From positions 372,683 to 392,144 of the forward strand of contig CP054849.1 in assembly GCA_044358425.1 (NCBI GenBank): a stretch of DNA of 19,462 nt. The letters are read 5' to 3'. This document shows positions 390 through 10,776 of this stretch, piece after piece (the stretch's first letter is position 1; each line of letters starts with the position of its first letter). Source of the DNA: Marine Group I thaumarchaeote. Its GTDB lineage: Archaea; Thermoproteota; Nitrososphaeria; Nitrososphaerales; Nitrosopumilaceae. The position numbers and the translations under genes were made by a program. The notes beneath the pieces were generated by a model, which was not told where the DNA came from, ran no database searches, and saw only the letters and a program-made list of their open reading frames with translations.

Positions 390-878
390 TTGCAAGCAGT
401 AACTGATGAACGATTAGCCCTTTTTGCAGAAATGGAATCAAAATATGAAAATAGTGATGTTGAGTACTTTGTATCTTTACTAGATCATCCTGATTATGTT
501 GTAAGAACACGTGCTACCTGTATTTTGGTTGATTTTGGTGGTGAGGATAAAATTCCCCATATTGCCAAAGTTTTAAAAAATGATGACAATGAATTGGTTA
601 GACATGAGGCAGCTTTTTCATTAGGTCAAATGTCTTATTCTTCAGCTGTTCCGCCATTAATTGATTCAACTCTAAATGATCCTAGCATGTTTGTTCGTCA
701 CGAAGCAGCAATTGCTCTTGGTGTGGTAGGCAATAAGGAAGCCAAAGAAACTTTGCAAAAGGCACTAAATGATCCTGATAAACCCGTAGTAGAATCTGCT
801 GTTGTGGCACTATCTAATATTGAATTTATGGAAACTTTAAGTAAGAATGAAAAATTTGCTAAATTAACAGGTGGATGA
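390..878 (+). CDS. PBS-lyase HEAT-repeat protein resembling one half of deoxyhypusine hydroxylase (DOHH)
   Basis: TTG start; tandem HEAT repeats (VRTRATCIL, VRHEAAFSLGQM, VRHEAAIALG, VVESAVVAL); two HE motifs, H72/E73 and H104/E105. Confidence 0.8.
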   Translation: MQAVTDERLALFAEMESKYENSDVEYFVSLLDHPDYVVRTRATCILVDFGGEDKIPHIAKVLKNDDNELVRHEAAFSLGQMSYSSAVPPLIDSTLNDPSMFVRHEAAIALGVVGNKEAKETLQKALNDPDKPVVESAVVALSNIEFMETLSKNEKFAKLTGG

Positions 879-1680
879 GATGAATCTTACGTATGGTGTA
901 ATTACAGTTGTTGGAATTTGTATTGCAATATCTTTAGCTTTAATTGTTGCTGATCCAAACGAAACACCCGCATCTCGTGAACTTGCAATTTCTGAAAATA
1001 ATATCGCTCAAATTGAAGAAGAACTTAATCAAATTTCAGTAAATCCTAGTTTGCTAACTAGCACAAGTAATGTAGGTGAAGCACTAGTGTTTGAAGTTGA
1101 ATTCATGGATGATGATGGAAACATTGTCGACCATGTAAACTATGATGTCTTTGCAACTCAAAATTCTGATTCAATTCTTTCAGAGACTGCAGCACATCGT
1201 CACCCTGGAAAATACCCAGTTCACGAAAGTAGTGCCTTAAAAGATTCAGTTATTGACATTACAGTTGTTGTTCAAGGTTTAGGTCATGGTGAGGACATTT
1301 ATGGTCCAAAAGGAATTGAAACTGCTTTTACTTTAACTCCTGCAGTTGCAGCACAAACTGCAACAAGTACTGAAATCAGAACTGCTGATAATTCTGGAAT
1401 GAGTATGGATTGTCAGGAATCTTTAGATTGTTACACCCCAAGTATTGTTACAGTCAATGTTGGTGATGTAGTAACTATGATAAATTCTGATTCTACGGCT
1501 GCAATGCACTCCTTTACAGCAGGTACAGTTGATGGATTTACTCCTTCTCCAAGTGGAGTCTTTGATACTGGAATTATGAATGGTGATGATGTTTTTGAAT
1601 GGACTCCAGAAAGTGCTGGTGAAGTACCCTACTATTGTTTACTACACACTTGGATGCAAGGAACAATTATTGTAGAATAA
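871..1680 (+). CDS. Membrane-anchored or secreted blue (type 1) copper / plastocyanin-like protein with an additional N-terminal His-containing beta domain
   Basis: N-terminal hydrophobic helix; C-terminal cupredoxin with 'MHSFT' and 'YYCLLHTWMQG' (H...C-x2-H-x2-M type 1 Cu ligands). The real start may be ATG at 880. Confidence 0.85.
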   Translation: MDEMNLTYGVITVVGICIAISLALIVADPNETPASRELAISENNIAQIEEELNQISVNPSLLTSTSNVGEALVFEVEFMDDDGNIVDHVNYDVFATQNSDSILSETAAHRHPGKYPVHESSALKDSVIDITVVVQGLGHGEDIYGPKGIETAFTLTPAVAAQTATSTEIRTADNSGMSMDCQESLDCYTPSIVTVNVGDVVTMINSDSTAAMHSFTAGTVDGFTPSPSGVFDTGIMNGDDVFEWTPESAGEVPYYCLLHTWMQGTIIVE

Positions 1681-1715: not shown

Positions 1716-2255
1716 TTGTCTAATCAAAAACTTCCAAAGTTTCCTTGTGTTGATTGTCATACTGATTGTTGTAAAGAATATACAATTTTTGTAAATGCCC
1801 ATGATGTTTATCGACTTTCCAATGGTTTGAATTCTAAACCTGAAACTTTTTTGGAGTTAATTGGTGCTAAAGATTATTCTCTTGGAATTAAAGTGGAAGA
1901 AGGTTTAGTAGATCTCGCTTTAAAACAAAAAAATGGAGCATGTGAGTTTCTTGAAGAATTTAATGATGTTTTTAGATGTACGGTAAATGATTTCAAACCT
2001 GGTGTGTGTAAATCATATCCGTTTGAAATGAAAAATGGTGAATTATCTCAAATGAGTGATATTATGTGCCCTACGGATTGGGATCTTACTGGCTTTAAAG
2101 AAATGATGGTACCTCATTTACAAAAAGATGAATCTGAATGGAAGTTTTATGATCAATTAGTAAAGGAATGGAATTTAAGACATGCCGGGCAACCTTTGTC
2201 TGACTTTTTGAGATTTATGATAAATCAGGTTGAAATATCTGTTAAAGTGGAATAA
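1716..2255 (+). CDS. YkgJ / CxxCxxCC family Cys-cluster (Zn/Fe-chelating) protein
   Basis: FPCVDCHTDCC, GACEFL, RCTV..KPGVCKSYPF match the CxxC-x3-CC...C-x-FL...C...P-x2-C-x2-YPF pattern. Confidence 0.85.
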   Translation: MSNQKLPKFPCVDCHTDCCKEYTIFVNAHDVYRLSNGLNSKPETFLELIGAKDYSLGIKVEEGLVDLALKQKNGACEFLEEFNDVFRCTVNDFKPGVCKSYPFEMKNGELSQMSDIMCPTDWDLTGFKEMMVPHLQKDESEWKFYDQLVKEWNLRHAGQPLSDFLRFMINQVEISVKVE

Positions 2256-4311
2256 CTTTACTTCCTTCTTCTTTTGATTCAAATTTGTAAATCTGTTCAA
2301 CGTTTGAATCTTCAAAAATTTCTGCATCGTGAGTGATGATTAAAAATTGCATTGGTGTTTGTGAGTTTGAAATTTCTGTTAATTGAGATAATACTCTGAC
2401 CAATGATTTCTTTCTCTCAGCATCAAGATGTGTTGTCGGTTCATCAAGTATCATCAGATTTAGATTTGATGAGCCTAGCAAACTTGCCATTCCTAACCGT
2501 AATGCCAATGCTACACTTACTTTTTCCCCTCCACTAAGTGATTCTAATTCTAAAACCTCTGTTTTTGAATAACAAGCAATTGATACGTCTCTAGCTTTTT
2601 CTGATAATGCAATTCTCTGAATTTTTGTATTTAGAAATGACAAATACTCTGATGCTTTAACTGAAATTGAATTTAATGCCCATGATCTTAAACTTGTTGC
2701 AACAGCGCCATCTCTGCTGAAAATATTTGTTTGAATTTTATCTAATTTTGAAATGTATTTTTTAACTTTTTTAAGTTCTAAAATTGAATTTTGAATTTTA
2801 TCTATTTGTTTTTCAGCTTTATCTATTTTTTCTAAAATTCCTCCTATATGTTGATGAATTTGAGATAAACTTCTTTGTTTTTCTTCAATTGTGTTTTTTA
2901 GATTTACAAATTCTTTTTCATTAAATCCTTTTGTTTCTAATTCTAATTTTAAAATATTTTCAAAAATTAATTTTGTATGTTCGTCTATTTGTGATATTTG
3001 TTTTAAATCATTATTGTTTATCAATGGTACTTTTTTCTTTTGAATTTGTGTTTCCTTTTGAATTCTAATTAATTCTTCTTTTGTATTAATTGAATGTGCT
3101 TTGAGAGTTGCTTCTGCATCTCTTGTTTTTTGTACCTTTTCGAAAAATTCTTTCTTCTTTTGATTATACATCTCCCGTTCTTTTTCTTTTAATTTGATAT
3201 TTTCCTGTAATTTGATTGTCTCTTCTTTAACATGTTCTATTTGGAAAAATGGATTTAATTTTTCTACAGTTGAATCACATACAGGACATTTATTGTCTTT
3301 TAATTGTAATTTTGATGCTAGAATTTGTTTTTCTTTTAAGGATGCAATTTGGCTTAACATTTCTTGAATTTTATTTGATGAATCTTCTAATGCTTCTTCC
3401 ACTTTTTGGATTTTTGTCTCAAAATCAATTTTTTGTTCAATTACGTCAAAACATCCTTCACAATCTCTTATTTTACGCTCATTTTCACTAATTTTTTCCT
3501 GAATTCCTTTCATTGTATCTTTAGCATATCTTGATAACTCATCTTTTCTTAGTTCTAATTGGTTGATTTTGTCAATTTTGGGTGTTTCAGTTTCTAATTC
3601 TTTTTTTAATTTTTTTAGTTCATCTTGAATTTGTTGTTGTTCTGATTCTAATTGATTCTTCTCAGGTTCCGATTCTTTGATATCTTGTTGGTATTTTTCA
3701 AAATCTCGTTCTAAAATATCAATATGTGTATCATCGTATCCTAAATCTGTTTTAATTTTTTCACGAAATTCTTTAGTCACTTTTTTCATGGATTCTGATG
3801 CAACATCTAATTTGTCTATTCCAATAATTGCATTGAGTAATTCTTTGAATTCTTTTGGTTTTGCATTAATTATTGAATTTAATTCCCCTTGTTGTACAAT
3901 TGATGCTATTTTTAATTTTTCAAAATCCATTCCTATTGTTTTTTCGACTTGCTCTGTCATTGATTCTCCAAATTGTTTTCTTTCTCCTGCTGCAATTTCC
4001 ACTCTACCTTCCTTAGTTATTTCAGAAAATGTTGCAACTAATCCTCCCTTACTATCTATTTTCCTTACTGTTTCATACTGTTTACCATTTATTGAAAATT
4101 CTATTTTTGAATACCCTTGATTAGATCCTCTTTTGATCAATCCTTTGTTTGATTTTCTTGTATGTTGTCCAAATAATGAAAATGTAATTCCATCAATAAT
4201 ACTTGATTTTCCAGCACCGTTTTCTCCTACAAAAATTGTTACTCCTTTTTCAAACTCTAATTTTGTTTCTGAATGTGCTAAAAAATCTCCTAATTCAATT
4301 GAAGTAATCAT
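2242..4311 (-). CDS. rad50: DNA double-strand break repair ATPase Rad50
   Basis: Walker A GENGAGKSS, Q-loop VQQGE, central zinc hook CPVC (aa 342-345), signature LSGGE, Walker B/D-loop ILDEPTTHLD, H-loop ITHD, coiled coils; adjacent to mre11. Confidence 0.95.
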   Translation of the reverse strand: MITSIELGDFLAHSETKLEFEKGVTIFVGENGAGKSSIIDGITFSLFGQHTRKSNKGLIKRGSNQGYSKIEFSINGKQYETVRKIDSKGGLVATFSEITKEGRVEIAAGERKQFGESMTEQVEKTIGMDFEKLKIASIVQQGELNSIINAKPKEFKELLNAIIGIDKLDVASESMKKVTKEFREKIKTDLGYDDTHIDILERDFEKYQQDIKESEPEKNQLESEQQQIQDELKKLKKELETETPKIDKINQLELRKDELSRYAKDTMKGIQEKISENERKIRDCEGCFDVIEQKIDFETKIQKVEEALEDSSNKIQEMLSQIASLKEKQILASKLQLKDNKCPVCDSTVEKLNPFFQIEHVKEETIKLQENIKLKEKEREMYNQKKKEFFEKVQKTRDAEATLKAHSINTKEELIRIQKETQIQKKKVPLINNNDLKQISQIDEHTKLIFENILKLELETKGFNEKEFVNLKNTIEEKQRSLSQIHQHIGGILEKIDKAEKQIDKIQNSILELKKVKKYISKLDKIQTNIFSRDGAVATSLRSWALNSISVKASEYLSFLNTKIQRIALSEKARDVSIACYSKTEVLELESLSGGEKVSVALALRLGMASLLGSSNLNLMILDEPTTHLDAERKKSLVRVLSQLTEISNSQTPMQFLIITHDAEIFEDSNVEQIYKFESKEEGSKVIPL

Positions 4312-7890: not shown

Positions 7891-8844
7891 TCATCCAATC
7901 TTACCTTTGAAAACCACTTTTTCATTTGTATTTGATGGAGTGGTTTTATCGATGTATTTTATTTCATACCAATCCCCAATATGGATAGTTTTACCGTCAA
8001 TTTGACGTGGGATTTTGATTTGTACTTCAAAGATGTTTGTGTTAGGTCCTGTTTCAATCAAATAATTTGAGTTGGCATCAAATTTTGGATTAGCAAGAGT
8101 AGTTTTAATTCCTCCTTCACTTTTAAATTCTAATTGACTAATTGAAATTTTATCTTCATCTCTAGAATCTCTATTTGCATCTGGTTCATACAATCTTAGA
8201 ATAAACTCATGTCCAATTCTTGAACCTCCTCCAAAAGTCTCAATTTCAGCAAATGTTTTTGTTAATGGAATTGACTTAAGTTGAATGCTTTGTTCTCCAG
8301 ATTGGTTGGATTTGTCTAGGTATTTTATCAAAACAATATCGTCTTGACTTAGTTGTTTACCATTAATTGTTTCAGGTAATTCTAATTTTAGATAAAATTT
8401 ACCTGTATTGTATCCCGTTTCAATCATTTTTTCAGGCCCTTGAATTGAAATTCCATTTATTGTAAATTCAAAAAGCCCTTCAGTAGATAATACTTCAATC
8501 CCTCGATGTGACAAATTCAAATCATGATCTGTGATGTAAAAATTCACCACAGACATACTTGATGCTGGAACTGTCTCGATATCTGGACCTGATTTTATGA
8601 TTTTTGTAGCAAGTAGAATGCCTCTTTCTTGCATTTTATCAACTGTTTCTGGTTTTACGCATGCAGGCATTCCATTTATTCGAATTACTAACTCTAATCC
8701 TCCTTTGCAGAGAACATTTTCTGCCGCAACACCTTCTTTCATTTGCTTTCTTGGGGAATCTATATCCCCATTTATGGGGCACATAAATGAAAATATTAAA
8801 AAAAATGATATTCCTAAAATTATTTTTTTATTAATTGTCATCAC
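7891..8844 (-). CDS. Secreted protein: SPxKQ...C...PACVKP module plus two tandem S-layer-like Ig-type repeats
   Basis: Signal-like N-terminus (KKIILGISFFLIFSF); two internally similar ~105-aa units, each with D-x-D-x-N, IETGxNTxxF and IKY(L/I)DK. Confidence 0.7.
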   Translation of the reverse strand: MMTINKKIILGISFFLIFSFMCPINGDIDSPRKQMKEGVAAENVLCKGGLELVIRINGMPACVKPETVDKMQERGILLATKIIKSGPDIETVPASSMSVVNFYITDHDLNLSHRGIEVLSTEGLFEFTINGISIQGPEKMIETGYNTGKFYLKLELPETINGKQLSQDDIVLIKYLDKSNQSGEQSIQLKSIPLTKTFAEIETFGGGSRIGHEFILRLYEPDANRDSRDEDKISISQLEFKSEGGIKTTLANPKFDANSNYLIETGPNTNIFEVQIKIPRQIDGKTIHIGDWYEIKYIDKTTPSNTNEKVVFKGKIG

Positions 8845-8908
8845 TTCACTGATTCTATTTTTTATTTTAAACTATCATTAATTAAGAGAACTTTTCTATT
8901 GTCATCAC

Positions 8909-9727
8909 ATGAAAAAAATTGGTTTATTGGGATGTGGTGTTATGGGTACTCAAATTGCACTAGCTATTGATTCTGGTAAAATCCCTGGAATTTTAACACA
9001 TGTTTATGATGATTCTAAAGAAGCATCCTCTTTACTTGTTTCAAAATTAAATAATAAACCTGAAATTGTTGAAAACTCTCATTTACTTTCATCACATTCT
9101 GTTAATATTGTAGTTGAAGCAGCTTCTCAAAATGCGGTAAGAGATGATGGATTAAGCATTTTACAAAATAAACGTGATTTTATGATTATGAGTGTGGGTG
9201 CATTACTGGATGAATCTATTTATGATATTTTGTATGATGCATGTGAACATTTCAAAAAAACAATTTATCTTCCATCTGGAGCAATTGCAGGATTGGATGG
9301 TTTAAAATCCATTAAAGATGAATTAGAATCTGTATCTATTACAACAACAAAACATCCTCGTTCATTAAAGGGAGCACAATTTTTTGAAACTTCTGAAATT
9401 AATTTAGATTCTATAGATTCTTCAACTATTATTTTTGAAGGAACTGCACGTGATGCGGTTTCATTATTTCCTGCAAACATCAATGTAGCAGCACTTGTCT
9501 CTTTATCTGGAATTGGTAGTGATAAGACATCTGTCAAAATTGTTGCTGATCCTGATACTGATAGGAATACTCATCATATTGAGGCAGTAGGTAAATCTGG
9601 TAAAATGACTTTTACTATTGAAAATACTCCTGACCCACAAAATCCAAAAACTAGTAGACTAGCTATTTTATCTGCTATCGAAACTTTGAGACAATATTGT
9701 TCTGATGATATTCAAATTGGAACATAA
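8909..9727 (+). CDS. nadX: L-aspartate dehydrogenase
   Basis: Rossmann motif GLLGCGVMG, EAASQ, SVGAL, PSGAIAGLD, FPANINVAA, NPKTS; lies upstream of nadA. Confidence 0.93.
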   Translation: MKKIGLLGCGVMGTQIALAIDSGKIPGILTHVYDDSKEASSLLVSKLNNKPEIVENSHLLSSHSVNIVVEAASQNAVRDDGLSILQNKRDFMIMSVGALLDESIYDILYDACEHFKKTIYLPSGAIAGLDGLKSIKDELESVSITTTKHPRSLKGAQFFETSEINLDSIDSSTIIFEGTARDAVSLFPANINVAALVSLSGIGSDKTSVKIVADPDTDRNTHHIEAVGKSGKMTFTIENTPDPQNPKTSRLAILSAIETLRQYCSDDIQIGT

Positions 9728-9729
9728 AT

Positions 9730-9748
9730 GGCAAAACTTGCCGCTTTT
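9730..9748 (+). terminator. Short hairpin plus T-tract after the nadX stop (candidate terminator)
   Basis: GGCAA-AAC-TTGCC (9730-9742) followed by GCTTTT. Confidence 0.3.
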
Positions 9749-9785
9749 AGAGATTCTATAGATCATTATAGACTACTTCCTATTC

Positions 9786-9792
9786 TTTAAAT
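9786..9792 (+). promoter_or_regulatory. Candidate archaeal TATA box for nadA
   Basis: TTTAAAT about 28-34 nt upstream of ATG 9820, consistent with a leaderless or short-leader transcript. Confidence 0.45.
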
Positions 9793-9819
9793 TTACACAC
9801 ATTCAATTTTTTGTAAATC

Positions 9820-10776
9820 ATGCAAGTTCAAGATACTTCATTTTTAAAAAATGAAATCATGAGATTAAAAAAAGAAAAAGACGTTGTGATTTTGGCTCAT
9901 AATTATGAAATTCCTGATGTACAGGATGTGGCAGATTTTACTGGTGATTCTCTTGGATTGTCTCGATTGGCTGCTACTGTTCCTCAAAAAACAATACTGT
10001 TTTGTGGTGTTCATTTTATGGCAGAAACTGCTTCAATTATTAGTCCTGAAAAAAGAGTACTTTTGCCTTCATTAGAAGCTGGTTGTTCGTTATCAGATTC
10101 AATTACAGTTGAAGAATTAAGAAATTGGAAAAAACAACATCCAAATGCAATTTCTGTTGGATATGTTAACACTACTGCTGAAATAAAATCTGAACTTGAT
10201 TATTGTTGTACTTCATCAAATGCTGTAAATGTTGTAAAAGCAATTCCTGAAGATAAAGAAATTTTGTTTTTACCTGATATGTTTCTAGGTTCTTATGTTG
10301 CAAAAATGACTGGTAGAAAAAATATGCACATTTGGGCAGGTGAATGTCATGTGCATGCTGGAATAACTCCTGAGGATGTTACTAAAAAATTACAATCTAT
10401 GAAAGATGCAGAATTTGTTATTCATCCTGAATGTAGTTGTACAACACCAATGATGTATGATGTTGCTGATGGAAGTTATGATGATAACAAAGTTTCAATT
10501 CTTTCTACTGAGGGAATGCTAAATCATGTTAGTAAATCTAAATCAAAGAATTTTGTTGTTGCAACTGAAACAGGAATTCTGTATAGAATGAAAAAAGAAA
10601 ATCCTGAGAAAACATTCATTCCAGCTTCAGAAAAGGCTGAATGTGAATATATGAAAATGATTACTCTTGAAAAAGTGTATGATGCCTTGATCAATGAGCG
10701 AAATGTGATTACTGTTCCAAAAAAAATTGCTGATAAAGCTCGTTTAGCCATTGATAGAATGCTTGAAATTAGTTAA
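9820..10776 (+). CDS. nadA: Quinolinate synthase A ([4Fe-4S])
   Basis: ILAHNY, GDSLGLS, FCGVHFMAET, YVNT, HPEC, TETG; three cluster cysteines in AGCS, GECHVH and ECEYMK. Confidence 0.97.
   Translation: MQVQDTSFLKNEIMRLKKEKDVVILAHNYEIPDVQDVADFTGDSLGLSRLAATVPQKTILFCGVHFMAETASIISPEKRVLLPSLEAGCSLSDSITVEELRNWKKQHPNAISVGYVNTTAEIKSELDYCCTSSNAVNVVKAIPEDKEILFLPDMFLGSYVAKMTGRKNMHIWAGECHVHAGITPEDVTKKLQSMKDAEFVIHPECSCTTPMMYDVADGSYDDNKVSILSTEGMLNHVSKSKSKNFVVATETGILYRMKKENPEKTFIPASEKAECEYMKMITLEKVYDALINERNVITVPKKIADKARLAIDRMLEIS

Follow-up and report, generated by a model that had tools for sequence, protein, structure and literature searches.

Gene Organization of the Locus

The analyzed window is a stretch of 19,462 nucleotides from the genome of a Marine Group I thaumarchaeote (contig CP054849.1, positions 372,683 to 392,144 of the forward strand). 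Near its start it contains a gene for a short HEAT-repeat protein that resembles one lobe of deoxyhypusine hydroxylase (DOHH), and a second gene follows directly on the same strand. The features of both genes are listed below.

390..878, + strand: gene of the one-lobe DOHH-like HEAT protein; open reading frame of 162 amino acids, stop codon included
405..449, + strand: N-terminal helix, residues 6–20 (a helix in the model); predicted dimer contact
495..581, + strand: HEAT repeat, residues 36–64; helices 36–49 and 52–64; invariant R39
591..677, + strand: HEAT repeat with the first His-Glu motif and LGQ, residues 68–96; helices 68–81 and 84–96
603..608, + strand: codons of H72/E73, equivalent to human DOHH H56/E57 and H207/E208; in the predicted interface
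624..626, + strand: codon of G79 (the G of LGQ); invariant; equivalent to the DOHH LGQ glycine (G214, C lobe)
687..764, + strand: HEAT repeat with the second His-Glu motif (FVRHEAAIALG), residues 100–125; helices 100–113 and 116–125
699..704, + strand: codons of H104/E105, equivalent to the human DOHH iron ligands H89/E90 and H240/E241
780..836, + strand: last long helix, residues 131–149 (VVESAVVALSN); main predicted dimer contact
855..875, + strand: C-terminal tail FAKLTGG, residues 156–162; conserved; low pLDDT in the monomer model
880..1680, + strand: downstream gene (context), starting at ATG 880 or at GTG 871, which overlaps the HEAT gene

The HEAT gene is present as a single copy in the 1.36-Mb Nitrosopumilus genome. 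Its translation matches exactly the one used in an earlier note on this DNA, which had described a 162-residue HEAT protein with His-Glu pairs at positions 72/73 and 104/105. Both pairs are present, spaced by 32 residues, and the translated frame contains VRTRA, DFGGED, LVRHEAAFSLGQM, AVPPL, MFVRHEAAIALG, and ALNDPDKPVVESAVVAL. The TTG at which the frame begins is a putative start codon, the alternative being an ATG at codon 15. Residues 8–14, located ahead of this ATG, show protein-level conservation across families in an alignment of 29 sequences, the NCBI-named orthologues P0028 and P0082 share the first residue with the HEAT protein in the alignment, and residues 6–20 form a confident helix in the monomer model. 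Contigs from RNA libraries cover positions 482–1904 (X1) and 482–1574 (X2, from the same study as X1), 947–1547 (X4), and short pieces of the region (X7); none lies on 241–481, and such contigs cannot show transcription or the start site. The product of the downstream gene looks, by eye, like a membrane-anchored cupredoxin and matched no Pfam family at E ≤ 0.001.

Affiliation with Deoxyhypusine Hydroxylase

DOHH carries a di-iron cofactor, with two Fe per active unit, and catalyzes the O2-dependent hydroxylation of deoxyhypusine on translation factor IF5A, a gain of 16 Da that completes hypusine; for the human enzyme, a blue and long-lived peroxo-diiron(III) species is described. Among solved structures, the human enzyme (4d4z) was the best natural match of the archaeal protein, with 97.8 bits (E 5.8e-27) for the single sequence and 128.5 bits (E 1.8e-36) for the family profile, which covered a whole lobe; the next natural proteins reached at most 46 bits with the same profile (Rpn2, 46; YibA, 43; CpcE, 32; MTH187, 30). 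All chains that outranked DOHH, in the sequence as well as in the fold searches, were designed proteins. Raw scores, by sequence and by Foldseek, were highest for alphaReps such as 3LTJ and 6FSQ and for the trimer 6VEH, since these consist of idealized consensus repeats of the same HEAT type, but they are artificial, display no His-Glu in the alignments shown, and differ in the curvature of their superhelix (rmsd of approximately 7 Å, compared to 4.2 Å for DOHH).

In BLASTP comparisons with yeast Lia1-type DOHH, the protein was 37% identical to the C lobe (residues 20–146) and 38% identical to the N lobe (residues 52–146), and in the alignments with the yeast and the human enzyme both His-Glu motifs and the LGQ glycine were in register with both lobes. 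The DOHH patterns that the earlier note had quoted occur in the human chain as khelayclgq, mvrheagealg, and vvrescevald. An HMM of the yeast DOHH lobes assigned the archaeal family a median of 63.7 bits (n = 29) versus 47.7 bits for the best generic HEAT protein in 213 background rows; this margin is modest, and one divergent member, L047, lies inside the generic range with 37.2 bits. In the calculated tree, DOHH lobes and archaeal proteins grouped apart from generic HEAT segments with a support of 99/91. The monomer model (pLDDT 91.7) consists entirely of helical hairpins in the PBS-lyase-type HEAT fold of DOHH, and its superposition on 4d4z_A (TM 0.73, 139 columns) had, with 4.2 Å, the lowest rmsd of all fold matches with more than 120 columns. 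Sequence, profile, HMM, and fold agree with the original proposal that the protein corresponds to one DOHH half, and place it closer to the DOHH lobes than to CpcE/F-type and generic HEAT proteins. Some copies of the family already bear the name “deoxyhypusine monooxygenase” at JGI.

The likeness to eukaryotic DOHH (human, PDB 4D4Z/4D50; yeast Lia1; EC 1.14.99.29) comprises the HEAT_PBS-type fold, two His-Glu motifs per lobe in consecutive repeats 32–33 residues apart, the LGQ glycine, an R-x-RA in the first repeat, the pattern VV(R/E)-S-x-x-V-A-L in the last helix, and the co-occurrence with IF5A and deoxyhypusine synthase. In the alignments, residues 36–64 form the counterpart of the R-x-RA repeat in both DOHH lobes (ERYRAMFRLRD in yeast DOHH), and the repeat with the first His-Glu motif reads LVRHEAAFSLGQ. 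According to sections of a review, two strictly conserved His-Glu motifs in consecutive repeats define a DOHH lobe, mutagenesis of human DOHH tied the His-Glu residues and the LGQ glycine to iron and substrate binding, and the glycine of the C lobe, G214, is implicated in binding the deoxyhypusine side chain (PMC9117371). The archaeal protein differs from DOHH by consisting of one lobe of 162 amino acids, whereas DOHH combines two lobes and eight HEAT repeats in one chain of approximately 300 amino acids; open frames among the matches listed for 301 genomes of the class ranged from 162 to 253 amino acids. Further differences are an extra conserved N-terminal helix and the FAKLTGG tail, which are both part of the predicted interface. 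Since the chain has one lobe, a set of four His-Glu motifs would require a homodimer, as is predicted below.

Conservation of the His-Glu Motifs

The residues H72, E73, H104, and E105 are invariant in 29 of 29 orthologues from ammonia-oxidizing archaea and their relatives at 35–91% identity, and the same holds for G79 and R39 as well as for M15 and E16 of the N-terminal helix. The tail follows the pattern F(A/T)x(L/M/K)TGG in 23 of the 29 aligned sequences, five sequences end in APRP, and L047 ends differently. A degenerate-looking protein, P0310 (VHHGTAF, IRPEAV), was contained in alignment A1 and left out of A2. A search of 1.84 billion representative sequences returned mainly very long HEAT proteins, which accumulate score over their many repeats; it served as a hard background set and as the source of the short relatives P0287 and P0333. 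Motifs were counted in a generic background of 144 long HEAT proteins, the highest-scoring ones for the query. His-Glu was found at the respective repeat position in 6 of 1113 repeats and in both members of 2 of 423 adjacent repeat pairs, which both belong to one protein; a conserved His-Glu pair was absent from these 1113 generic repeats. The motif exceeds chance.

These counts bear on one alternative, an ordinary HEAT/PBS-lyase-type scaffold that has no metal site and whose His-Glu pairs are structural. It would account for the Pfam matches to the generic families HEAT_2 (2.7e-26) and HEAT_PBS (1.1e-14), which the protein shares with CpcE/CpcF, NblB, and short HEAT proteins of the YibA/MTH187 type, for the weak NCBIfam matches to NblB, CpcE, and CpcF, and for the names “PBS lyase” and “HEAT repeat domain-containing protein” given to orthologues by NCBI. 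However, the NCBIfam scores are all far under the respective cut-offs (NblB, 39.5 of 300 bits; CpcE, 34.5 of 330; CpcF, 19.6 of 220; CpeY, 25.4 of 600), so that the protein falls outside the equivalogs of phycobilin lyases and NblB, the family profile favors DOHH over CpcE by 128.5 to 32 bits, and a motif as rare in generic repeats as His-Glu is invariant in the family. A plain scaffold is highly improbable. Ammonia-oxidizing archaea are not known to make phycobiliproteins.

Predicted Homodimer and a Natural Tandem Fusion

Structure prediction for two copies of the chain yielded homodimer scores of 0.91, 0.92, and 0.91 compared to 0.01 for the best control, with at least 98% of the contacts in common among the runs and a partner pLDDT of at least 94. 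In calibration, 20 of the 30 proteins with a structure solved as a pair of identical chains, and 1 of the 23 solved as single chains, had reached the mark applied to such scores. The predicted interface includes residues 72–73, 76, 99, 101, and 104, with residue 104 contacting residue 101 of the other copy, together with N-terminal residues 3–4, 8–10, 12–13, 15–16, and 19–20 and tail residues 156–157 and 159–162; the least expected error was obtained for the pairs 139–37, 69–136, 142–37, and 12–146. The homodimerization put forward in the earlier note is thus predicted as a symmetric arrangement with the His-Glu motifs at the interface, and in the model the packed lobes turn all four motifs toward one cleft, although this result may stem from the predictor's memory of, or likeness to, the solved two-lobe DOHH and is no demonstration of binding. 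In the proposed mechanism, two identical chains would pack as a symmetric pair, held together by the N-terminal helix, the last long helix, and the FAKLTGG tail. In this pair, H72/E73 and H104/E105 from both chains would give four His-Glu motifs that line a single cleft, and the di-iron site that the eukaryotic enzyme forms with its two lobes would thereby be rebuilt.

A natural tandem fusion of 363 amino acids, P0121, is known as one sequence from one metagenome contig. It retains all four RHE motifs, both of its halves belong to the archaeal family, being 57% identical to each other and 53–58% identical to the Nitrosopumilaceae proteins, and it is colinear with full-length yeast DOHH. It represents a separate, lineage-specific duplication, as its halves group together with a support of 91/91. 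The model of P0121, in which the first 44 residues are disordered, fits over the whole human DOHH with a TMt of 0.83 as compared to 0.3–0.5 for alphaReps, but its lobe arrangement is not independent evidence because the alignment underlying the model contained yeast DOHHs.

Distribution and the Archaeal Hypusine Pathway

The literature on hypusine (2016, 2018, 2021) agrees with the starting premise that no archaeal hydroxylase is established: according to these papers, a DOHH orthologue has yet to be identified in archaea, which leaves archaeal hypusine formation unexplained. Literature on hypusine in Nitrosopumilus or on DOHH in Thaumarchaeota was not found. Deoxyhypusine alone is made by, for example, Haloferax volcanii and a yeast lia1 deletion strain. 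The presence of aIF5A and deoxyhypusine synthase, likewise presupposed for archaea, applies to the genome studied here, which encodes two homologues of deoxyhypusine synthase and an aIF5A whose lysine loop reads KPGKHG.

Among the families sampled, strong matches to the HEAT protein were confined to the order of the ammonia oxidizers, families f4, f7, and f9 of the same class, and two families of another class, and were absent from most families of the phylum sample (e.g., 0 of 32 genomes in f22 and 0 of 24 in f30). Sulfolobus acidocaldarius, whose genus has documented hypusine according to the hypusine literature, has no HEAT_2 protein at all. The protein thus is not a general archaeal hydroxylase, and the earlier designation as “the” missing archaeal DOHH was too broad. 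The lack of the gene in Sulfolobus and most sampled families further implies that hypusine-containing archaea must use another hydroxylase, which might also be the case in the ammonia oxidizers. Within the class, all seven gene-bearing families possess a haem-copper oxidase, and the gene was found in 0 of 41 genomes from the seven families whose oxidase matches were weak or absent; in family f8, an oxidase is present in 11 of 14 genomes and the gene in 0 of 14. The co-occurrence with the oxidase is indirect evidence bearing on a putative di-iron cofactor and O2 dependence. Because related genomes are not independent, it may go back to one or two gain events.

Gene Neighborhood and Alternative Functions

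A genomic link to hypusine was found in genome G475 of family f24, which belongs to another class of the phylum. Here the orthologue and a deoxyhypusine synthase gene are divergently oriented and separated by 78 bp; a second synthase gene adjoins, an SLOG/LOG-like gene is a further neighbor, and ferritin-like and SCO1/SenC genes are found nearby. In three genomes of one genus, the distance between the orthologue and a synthase gene is about 5 kb. All 11 loci examined in the gene's own class lacked genes of deoxyhypusine synthase and aIF5A within approximately 10 kb, their neighbors vary by family, no conserved functional neighbor was detected, and linkage to aIF5A occurred in none of the 17 loci examined.

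This neighborhood is also compatible with a homodimeric HEAT oxygenase with a di-iron site whose target is not aIF5A but another amine or lysine-derived substrate, for example a free polyamine from the second deoxyhypusine synthase-like enzyme or another protein. Such an enzyme would match the metal ligands and the predicted dimer equally well, the genome holds two synthase paralogues, and the linkage in G475, where both synthase paralogues and the SLOG/LOG-like gene flank the orthologue, could for that reason concern polyamine chemistry; the missing aIF5A linkage (0 of 17 loci) points in the same direction. In addition, relatives hold a second, divergent family of half-size His-Glu paralogues, which suggests functional diversification and hence possibly more than one function for modules of this type. 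On the other hand, no hydroxylated polyamine of ammonia oxidizers was met in the literature, which was not searched with this specific aim, and DOHH is the sole characterized enzyme of the fold type mentioned in the sections of the review considered (PMC9117371). A substrate other than aIF5A is, on balance, rather unlikely.

A search of genome contigs for related loci yielded 80 loci, all of the Nitrosopumilus type and none from other phyla, and in 73 of these a cupredoxin-like homologue directly follows the HEAT gene and starts within a few bases of its stop codon, while a redoxin gene is located upstream in 75. The cupredoxin-like partner has no link to translation, an observation that counts against a function as DOHH. 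It would suit a HEAT protein that binds metal without being a catalyst and that, for instance, senses iron or oxygen or acts as a metal chaperone or assembly factor; in Nitrosopumilus, such a protein would serve the co-transcribed cupredoxin-like membrane protein. The RNA-library contigs X1 and X2 cross the junction of both genes, and the ferritin-like and SCO1/SenC genes near the G475 orthologue also are consistent with a role of this kind. However, a contig that runs across two genes is no proof of a common transcript, none of the 17 loci of other families has the cupredoxin linkage although protein and motifs are conserved there, and the full DOHH ligand set together with the substrate-site glycine exceeds the needs of simple metal binding. 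Such a non-catalytic role is considered improbable.

Implications for Hypusine Formation in Archaea

The fold of the protein, its homology to DOHH, and the conservation of the iron- and substrate-holding residues of DOHH are shown here. The reading of the gene product as a one-lobe DOHH homologue (EC 1.14.99.29) whose dimer rebuilds the eukaryotic di-iron site has, in our estimate, an about even chance of being correct. The more far-reaching scenario is that ammonia-oxidizing archaea and some of their relatives make true hypusine by means of a homodimeric one-lobe DOHH that represents the ancestral state before the internal duplication that gave rise to the two-lobe enzyme of eukaryotes, with P0121 as an independent repeat of the duplication; we regard this as plausible, with its probability somewhat below one half. 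The idea of a pre-duplication ancestor fits one tree, which includes yeast as the only source of DOHHs and has long branches.

The protein is a concrete candidate for the enzyme reported missing in archaea. Since Sulfolobus and most of the sampled families are without the gene, archaea must have yet another hydroxylase that is unrelated to it. For one large and ecologically dominant archaeal group, the gene now provides a defined candidate hydroxylase. If it is active, it would show that two identical HEAT modules of four repeats can form a di-iron site between them, and the origin of the eukaryotic enzyme would be tied to the archaea.

A half-size homolog of deoxyhypusine hydroxylase

The HEAT gene is an open reading frame of 162 codons with a TTG start, which occurs in one copy in the 1.36-Mb genome. 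All sequence strings and His-Glu (HE) positions quoted in the earlier note were found in its translation.

390–878, + strand: HEAT gene
603–608, + strand: codons of H72/E73, the first HE motif
699–704, + strand: codons of H104/E105, the second HE motif, 32 residues from the first

Pfam assigned the protein to generic repeat families only (HEAT_2, 2.7e-26; HEAT, 3.5e-15; HEAT_PBS, 1.1e-14), and the NCBIfam matches to NblB, CpcE, CpcF, and CpeY were weak and all far below the cut-offs (e.g., 39.5 vs. 300 bits). When all solved structures were searched with the single sequence, designed alphaRep chains ranked above everything, and the best natural protein was human deoxyhypusine hydroxylase (DOHH; 4d4z, 97.8 bits, E = 5.8e-27). 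With the family profile, DOHH reached up to 128.5 bits (E = 1.8e-36), profile positions 36–152 being aligned to DOHH chain positions 24–140, which is an entire lobe. Behind DOHH, the highest-scoring natural proteins were Rpn2 (46 bits), YibA (43 bits), CpcE (32 bits), and MTH187 (30 bits), and the protein thus proved closer to DOHH (128.5 bits) than to CpcE/F.

A search for longer proteins retrieved P0134 (319 amino acids), which according to the names of close relatives belongs to the yeast Lia1/DOHH family and whose alignment to human DOHH spans the whole length. In BLASTP, residues 20–146 of the HEAT protein matched the C lobe of P0134 at 37% identity and residues 52–146 the N lobe at 38%, both HE motifs being in register in each case. 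The combined alignments provided a residue mapping onto human DOHH: H72/E73 correspond to H56/E57 and H207/E208, H104/E105 to H89/E90 and H240/E241, and G79 to the glycine of the LGQ motif. The review PMC9117371 describes the di-iron center of human DOHH as anchored by H56, H89, E90, H207, H240, and E241, and the deoxyhypusine side chain as bound by the Glu residues and two glycines. Judged from these alignments, the HEAT protein is a one-lobe DOHH homolog with a complete ligand set, as the earlier note had proposed on the grounds of its half size and HE motifs.

The frequency of the motif was determined in the 144 top-scoring long HEAT proteins among 1.84 billion representatives searched with the HEAT protein. 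Of 1113 repeats, 6 had HE at the position that the motif occupies within a repeat, and of 423 pairs of neighboring repeats, 2 had it in each member; these two pairs are both from P0324. This long HEAT protein (1029 amino acids) carries five (R/K)HE motifs at the DOHH position (residues 523, 706, 736, 767, and 981), three of them in consecutive repeats, and may be a multi-site metal-binding protein. An HMM of both lobes (N and C) from 20 yeast DOHHs was also applied to 29 family members (median 63.7 bits, range 37.2–72.7) and 213 background rows, among which the best truly generic HEAT protein reached 47.7 bits; rows above this value (P0273, P0287, P0333, and the fusion protein P0121) are family members or fragments. 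By this measure the family stands above generic HEAT proteins by a genuine though modest margin, with its most divergent member (L047) scoring inside the generic range.

Predicted pairing and a natural fusion

The monomer was modeled as helical hairpins with a low-confidence tail (pLDDT 91.7, pTM 0.86). Foldseek searches with this model placed designed repeat proteins on top, human DOHH as the best natural match (TM 0.73), and CpcE/F next (E = 1.1e-3); the rmsd was 4.2 Å to DOHH over 139 columns vs. ~7 Å to designed proteins of similar aligned length.

The earlier note had also suggested that two chains could rebuild the four-HE di-iron site as a homodimer, and a dimer with HE residues at the interface was indeed predicted. 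Runs with two iron ions scored 0.91, 0.92, and 0.91, compared to 0.01 for the best of three controls, with at least 98% of contacts in common and a partner pLDDT of at least 94. In the calibration the mark was reached by 20 of 30 proteins with homodimer structures and 1 of 23 with monomer structures, counts that are only rough here owing to the custom alignment and ligand. The predicted interface is symmetric and comprises residues 72–73, 76, 99, 101, and 104, along with the conserved helix at the N-terminus, the last helix, and the C-terminal tail. This outcome supports binding rather than demonstrating it, and memory of the two-lobe DOHH structure may have contributed. Eukaryotic DOHH contains two lobes in one chain, whereas two of the half-size, one-lobe chains would pair, as predicted, into a DOHH-like dyad with the full ligand set.

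A natural fusion, P0121 (363 amino acids), was found on a single metagenome contig. It consists of two modules of the archaeal HEAT family joined head-to-tail, retains all four RHE motifs, and aligns colinearly with yeast DOHH over the full length of the latter. The two halves share 57% identity with one another and 53–58% with Nitrosopumilaceae proteins. The P0121 model (pLDDT 76.4) matched whole human DOHH with a TMt of 0.83 (rmsd 5.1 Å, 299 columns) vs. 0.3–0.5 for alphaReps, but since its alignment included yeast DOHHs the modeled lobe arrangement is non-independent evidence.

Phylogeny and distribution

A tree of 65 lobe-sized sequences (LG+C20), with DOHHs from yeast only, separated the DOHH lobes and archaeal proteins from eight generic HEAT segments (support 99/91). 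The yeast N and C lobes clustered together (100/97) opposite the archaeal group (96/81), and the halves of P0121 clustered with each other (91/91) beside Nitrosopumilus. This topology, which contains long branches and flagged long-branch joins and whose root depends on the chosen outgroup, agrees with a duplication in eukaryotes that postdates the divergence from the one-lobe archaeal proteins.

The HEAT protein has more than 2400 close homologs, which where named belong to Nitrosopumilus; loci from named genomes were of Nitrosopumilus or Nitrosomarinus origin. At E ≤ 1e-5, 235 of 301 genomes of the class had a match, distributed over the sampled families as follows: f1, 179/180; f2, 9/9; f3, 34/39; f4, 3/3; f5, 3/4; f7, 5/9; f9, 1/1; f6, f8, and f10–f15, 0/55. 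Among the genomes counted under f1 are G132, G231, and G283, which are unpublished and whose sequence was left out of the analysis; a few class matches are weak (e.g., G064, 2.2e-6; G104, 1e-7; neither matched by the family profile). In an alignment of 29 sequences including divergent orthologs (35–91% identity), H72, E73, H104, E105, G79, R39, M15, and E16 were invariant. The HE motifs are thus kept across orthologs, and the protein is under strong purifying selection.

Two types of C-terminal tail were observed: F(A/T)x(L/M/K)TGG (window 855–875; f1, f2, f3, f5, f9, f24, and f43) and RAPRP, paired with an MYTS N-terminus (f4 and f7; two copies in genome G001). The di-glycine end of the HEAT protein recalls ubiquitin-like C-termini, to which we know of no link.

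When 401 genomes of the phylum were searched, scores over 200 bits were confined to the families of ammonia oxidizers and to two families that belong to another class, f24 (9 strong and 1 partial among 17 genomes) and f43 (2 genomes). Large families such as f22 (0/32), f30 (0/24), and f17 (0/16) had none, and a few others had only 50-bit matches to long HEAT proteins. Searched with Pfam HEAT_2, the genomes of Sulfolobus acidocaldarius and Methanocaldococcus jannaschii, which served as controls, gave no match. As hypusine was detected in S. acidocaldarius, among other archaea, according to Prunetti (2016; PMC5178350), the HEAT protein is excluded as a general archaeal hydroxylase. Its designation as "the missing archaeal DOHH" was therefore too broad, most sampled families of the phylum also lacking a strong match, and hypusine formation in Sulfolobus-type archaea is not solved by it.

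A second, divergent half-size paralog family occurs in other Nitrosopumilaceae and one Nitrososphaeraceae-level genome.

L159:374–907, + strand: second paralog
L160:478–1005, − strand: second paralog
L161:490–999, − strand: second paralog
L162:421–939, + strand: second paralog
L047:1306–1803, + strand: second paralog

These proteins contain two (K/R)HE motifs 32 residues apart (VVKHEAxxQIA ... KHE(A/S)IExLG) and form a long-branch clade (support 100/100); none was found in the window's genome, which is 91% complete. Two different half-size modules could form heterodimers in one cell.

Heme-copper oxidase (PF00115) was sought in the same 301 genomes. All seven families with the HEAT gene also have the oxidase, and f6 and f10–f15 (7 families, 41 genomes), with no or only weak oxidase matches, have no HEAT match; f8 is an exception (oxidase 11/14, HEAT gene 0/14). 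This pattern is compatible with an O2-dependent enzyme, but a single gain could also have produced it, and the related genomes are non-independent.

Hypusine pathway genes and genomic context

The genome encodes, as the earlier note had stated for archaea, both aIF5A (one gene, KPGKHG loop) and deoxyhypusine synthase (two homologs), all three far from the HEAT gene.

G000:C1:342751–343605, + strand: synthase homolog, locus L002
G000:C1:595772–596665, − strand: synthase homolog, locus L003

Their Pfam DS scores are 331.5 and 281.9 bits, respectively, and either is a candidate for modifying aIF5A. No synthase or aIF5A gene lies within ~10 kb of the HEAT gene in 11 loci from seven class families, among which its neighbors vary. 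In the f24 genome G475 the order is synthase (+), synthase (−), 78 bp, HEAT gene (+). The two synthase genes (L153:7926–8846 and 8832–9863) are side by side, score above 300 bits on Pfam DS, and represent the same two types as in the window's genome. In a different f24 genus, a synthase gene lies ~5 kb from the HEAT gene in three genomes; in f43, the 10 kb around the HEAT gene held no synthase gene in either of two genomes. The f24 linkages amount to two independent arrangements at most. Genes for SLOG cluster-4 (LOG-like), ferritin-like, and SCO1/SenC proteins follow the HEAT gene of G475 on the opposite strand (L153:10439–12654), so that iron- and copper-handling genes lie beside both synthase genes.

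In the window, the HEAT gene has a divergent redoxin-like gene on one side and the following genes downstream.

871/880–1680, + strand: downstream gene, 2-base gap (ATG at 880) or 8-base overlap with the HEAT gene
1716–2255, + strand: CxxCxxCC protein (PF03692, 9.9e-8), two genes downstream of the HEAT gene
2242–4311, − strand: Rad50-like ORF, 689 amino acids

The product of the first gene, which had no Pfam match at E ≤ 0.001, shows a hydrophobic segment at its N-terminus and, toward the C-terminus, a C-x2-H-x2-M string resembling a type-1 copper site, and by eye looks like a membrane-anchored cupredoxin. Coupling of the HEAT and cupredoxin-like genes was found in 73 of 80 Nitrosopumilus-type loci and in none of 17 from other families; a CxxCxxCC protein homolog was within 3 kb in only 12 of the 80. 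By eye, ORFs adjoining the second paralog (L159:964–1401, − strand; L162:943–1401, + strand) have a similar cysteine pattern. The Rad50-like ORF is the only neighbor common beyond genus-level loci, its f5 homolog (36% identity, Pfam SMC_N/AAA_23) lying ~0.6 kb from the HEAT gene of that f5 genome.

Upstream, ~25–30 bases before the TTG start codon (390), the A/T-rich string aatataga (360–367) resembles by eye an archaeal TATA box that would serve a transcript with a short leader or none. RNA-library contigs X1 and X2 (two libraries of one study) both stop exactly at 482, inside the HEAT gene, and none of the four RNA runs had a contig at 241–481. Either strain variation where the assembly breaks or the end of a transcript could explain this, and contigs do not allow the two to be told apart.

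Novelty and likely function

Prunetti (2016; PMC5178350), Bassani (2018; PMC6105217), and a 2021 review (PMC8153317) report no DOHH ortholog in archaea, in agreement with the earlier note that no archaeal hydroxylase is established. A search of the literature on hypusine or DOHH in archaea, Thaumarchaeota, Nitrosopumilus, and Asgard, covering few subscription journals, yielded no archaeal DOHH by name, and one paper retrieved for deoxyhypusine in ammonia-oxidizing archaea mentions the synthase alone. NCBI names the homologs "HEAT repeat domain-containing protein" or "PBS lyase." Since JGI names some "deoxyhypusine monooxygenase" (8 of 120 homologs listed, plus 2 of the 15 given for another cluster), the DOHH idea is not new at the database level.

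The HEAT gene occurs only in lineages that carry the oxidase, and one relative has it next to the gene for the enzyme of the preceding step. The chances that its product is a working deoxyhypusine hydroxylase appear about even; it is quite probable that the product is a DOHH-type dimer with a two-metal site, irrespective of the substrate on which it acts. What is new would be a homodimeric, half-size form of DOHH, as suggested by the structural models.
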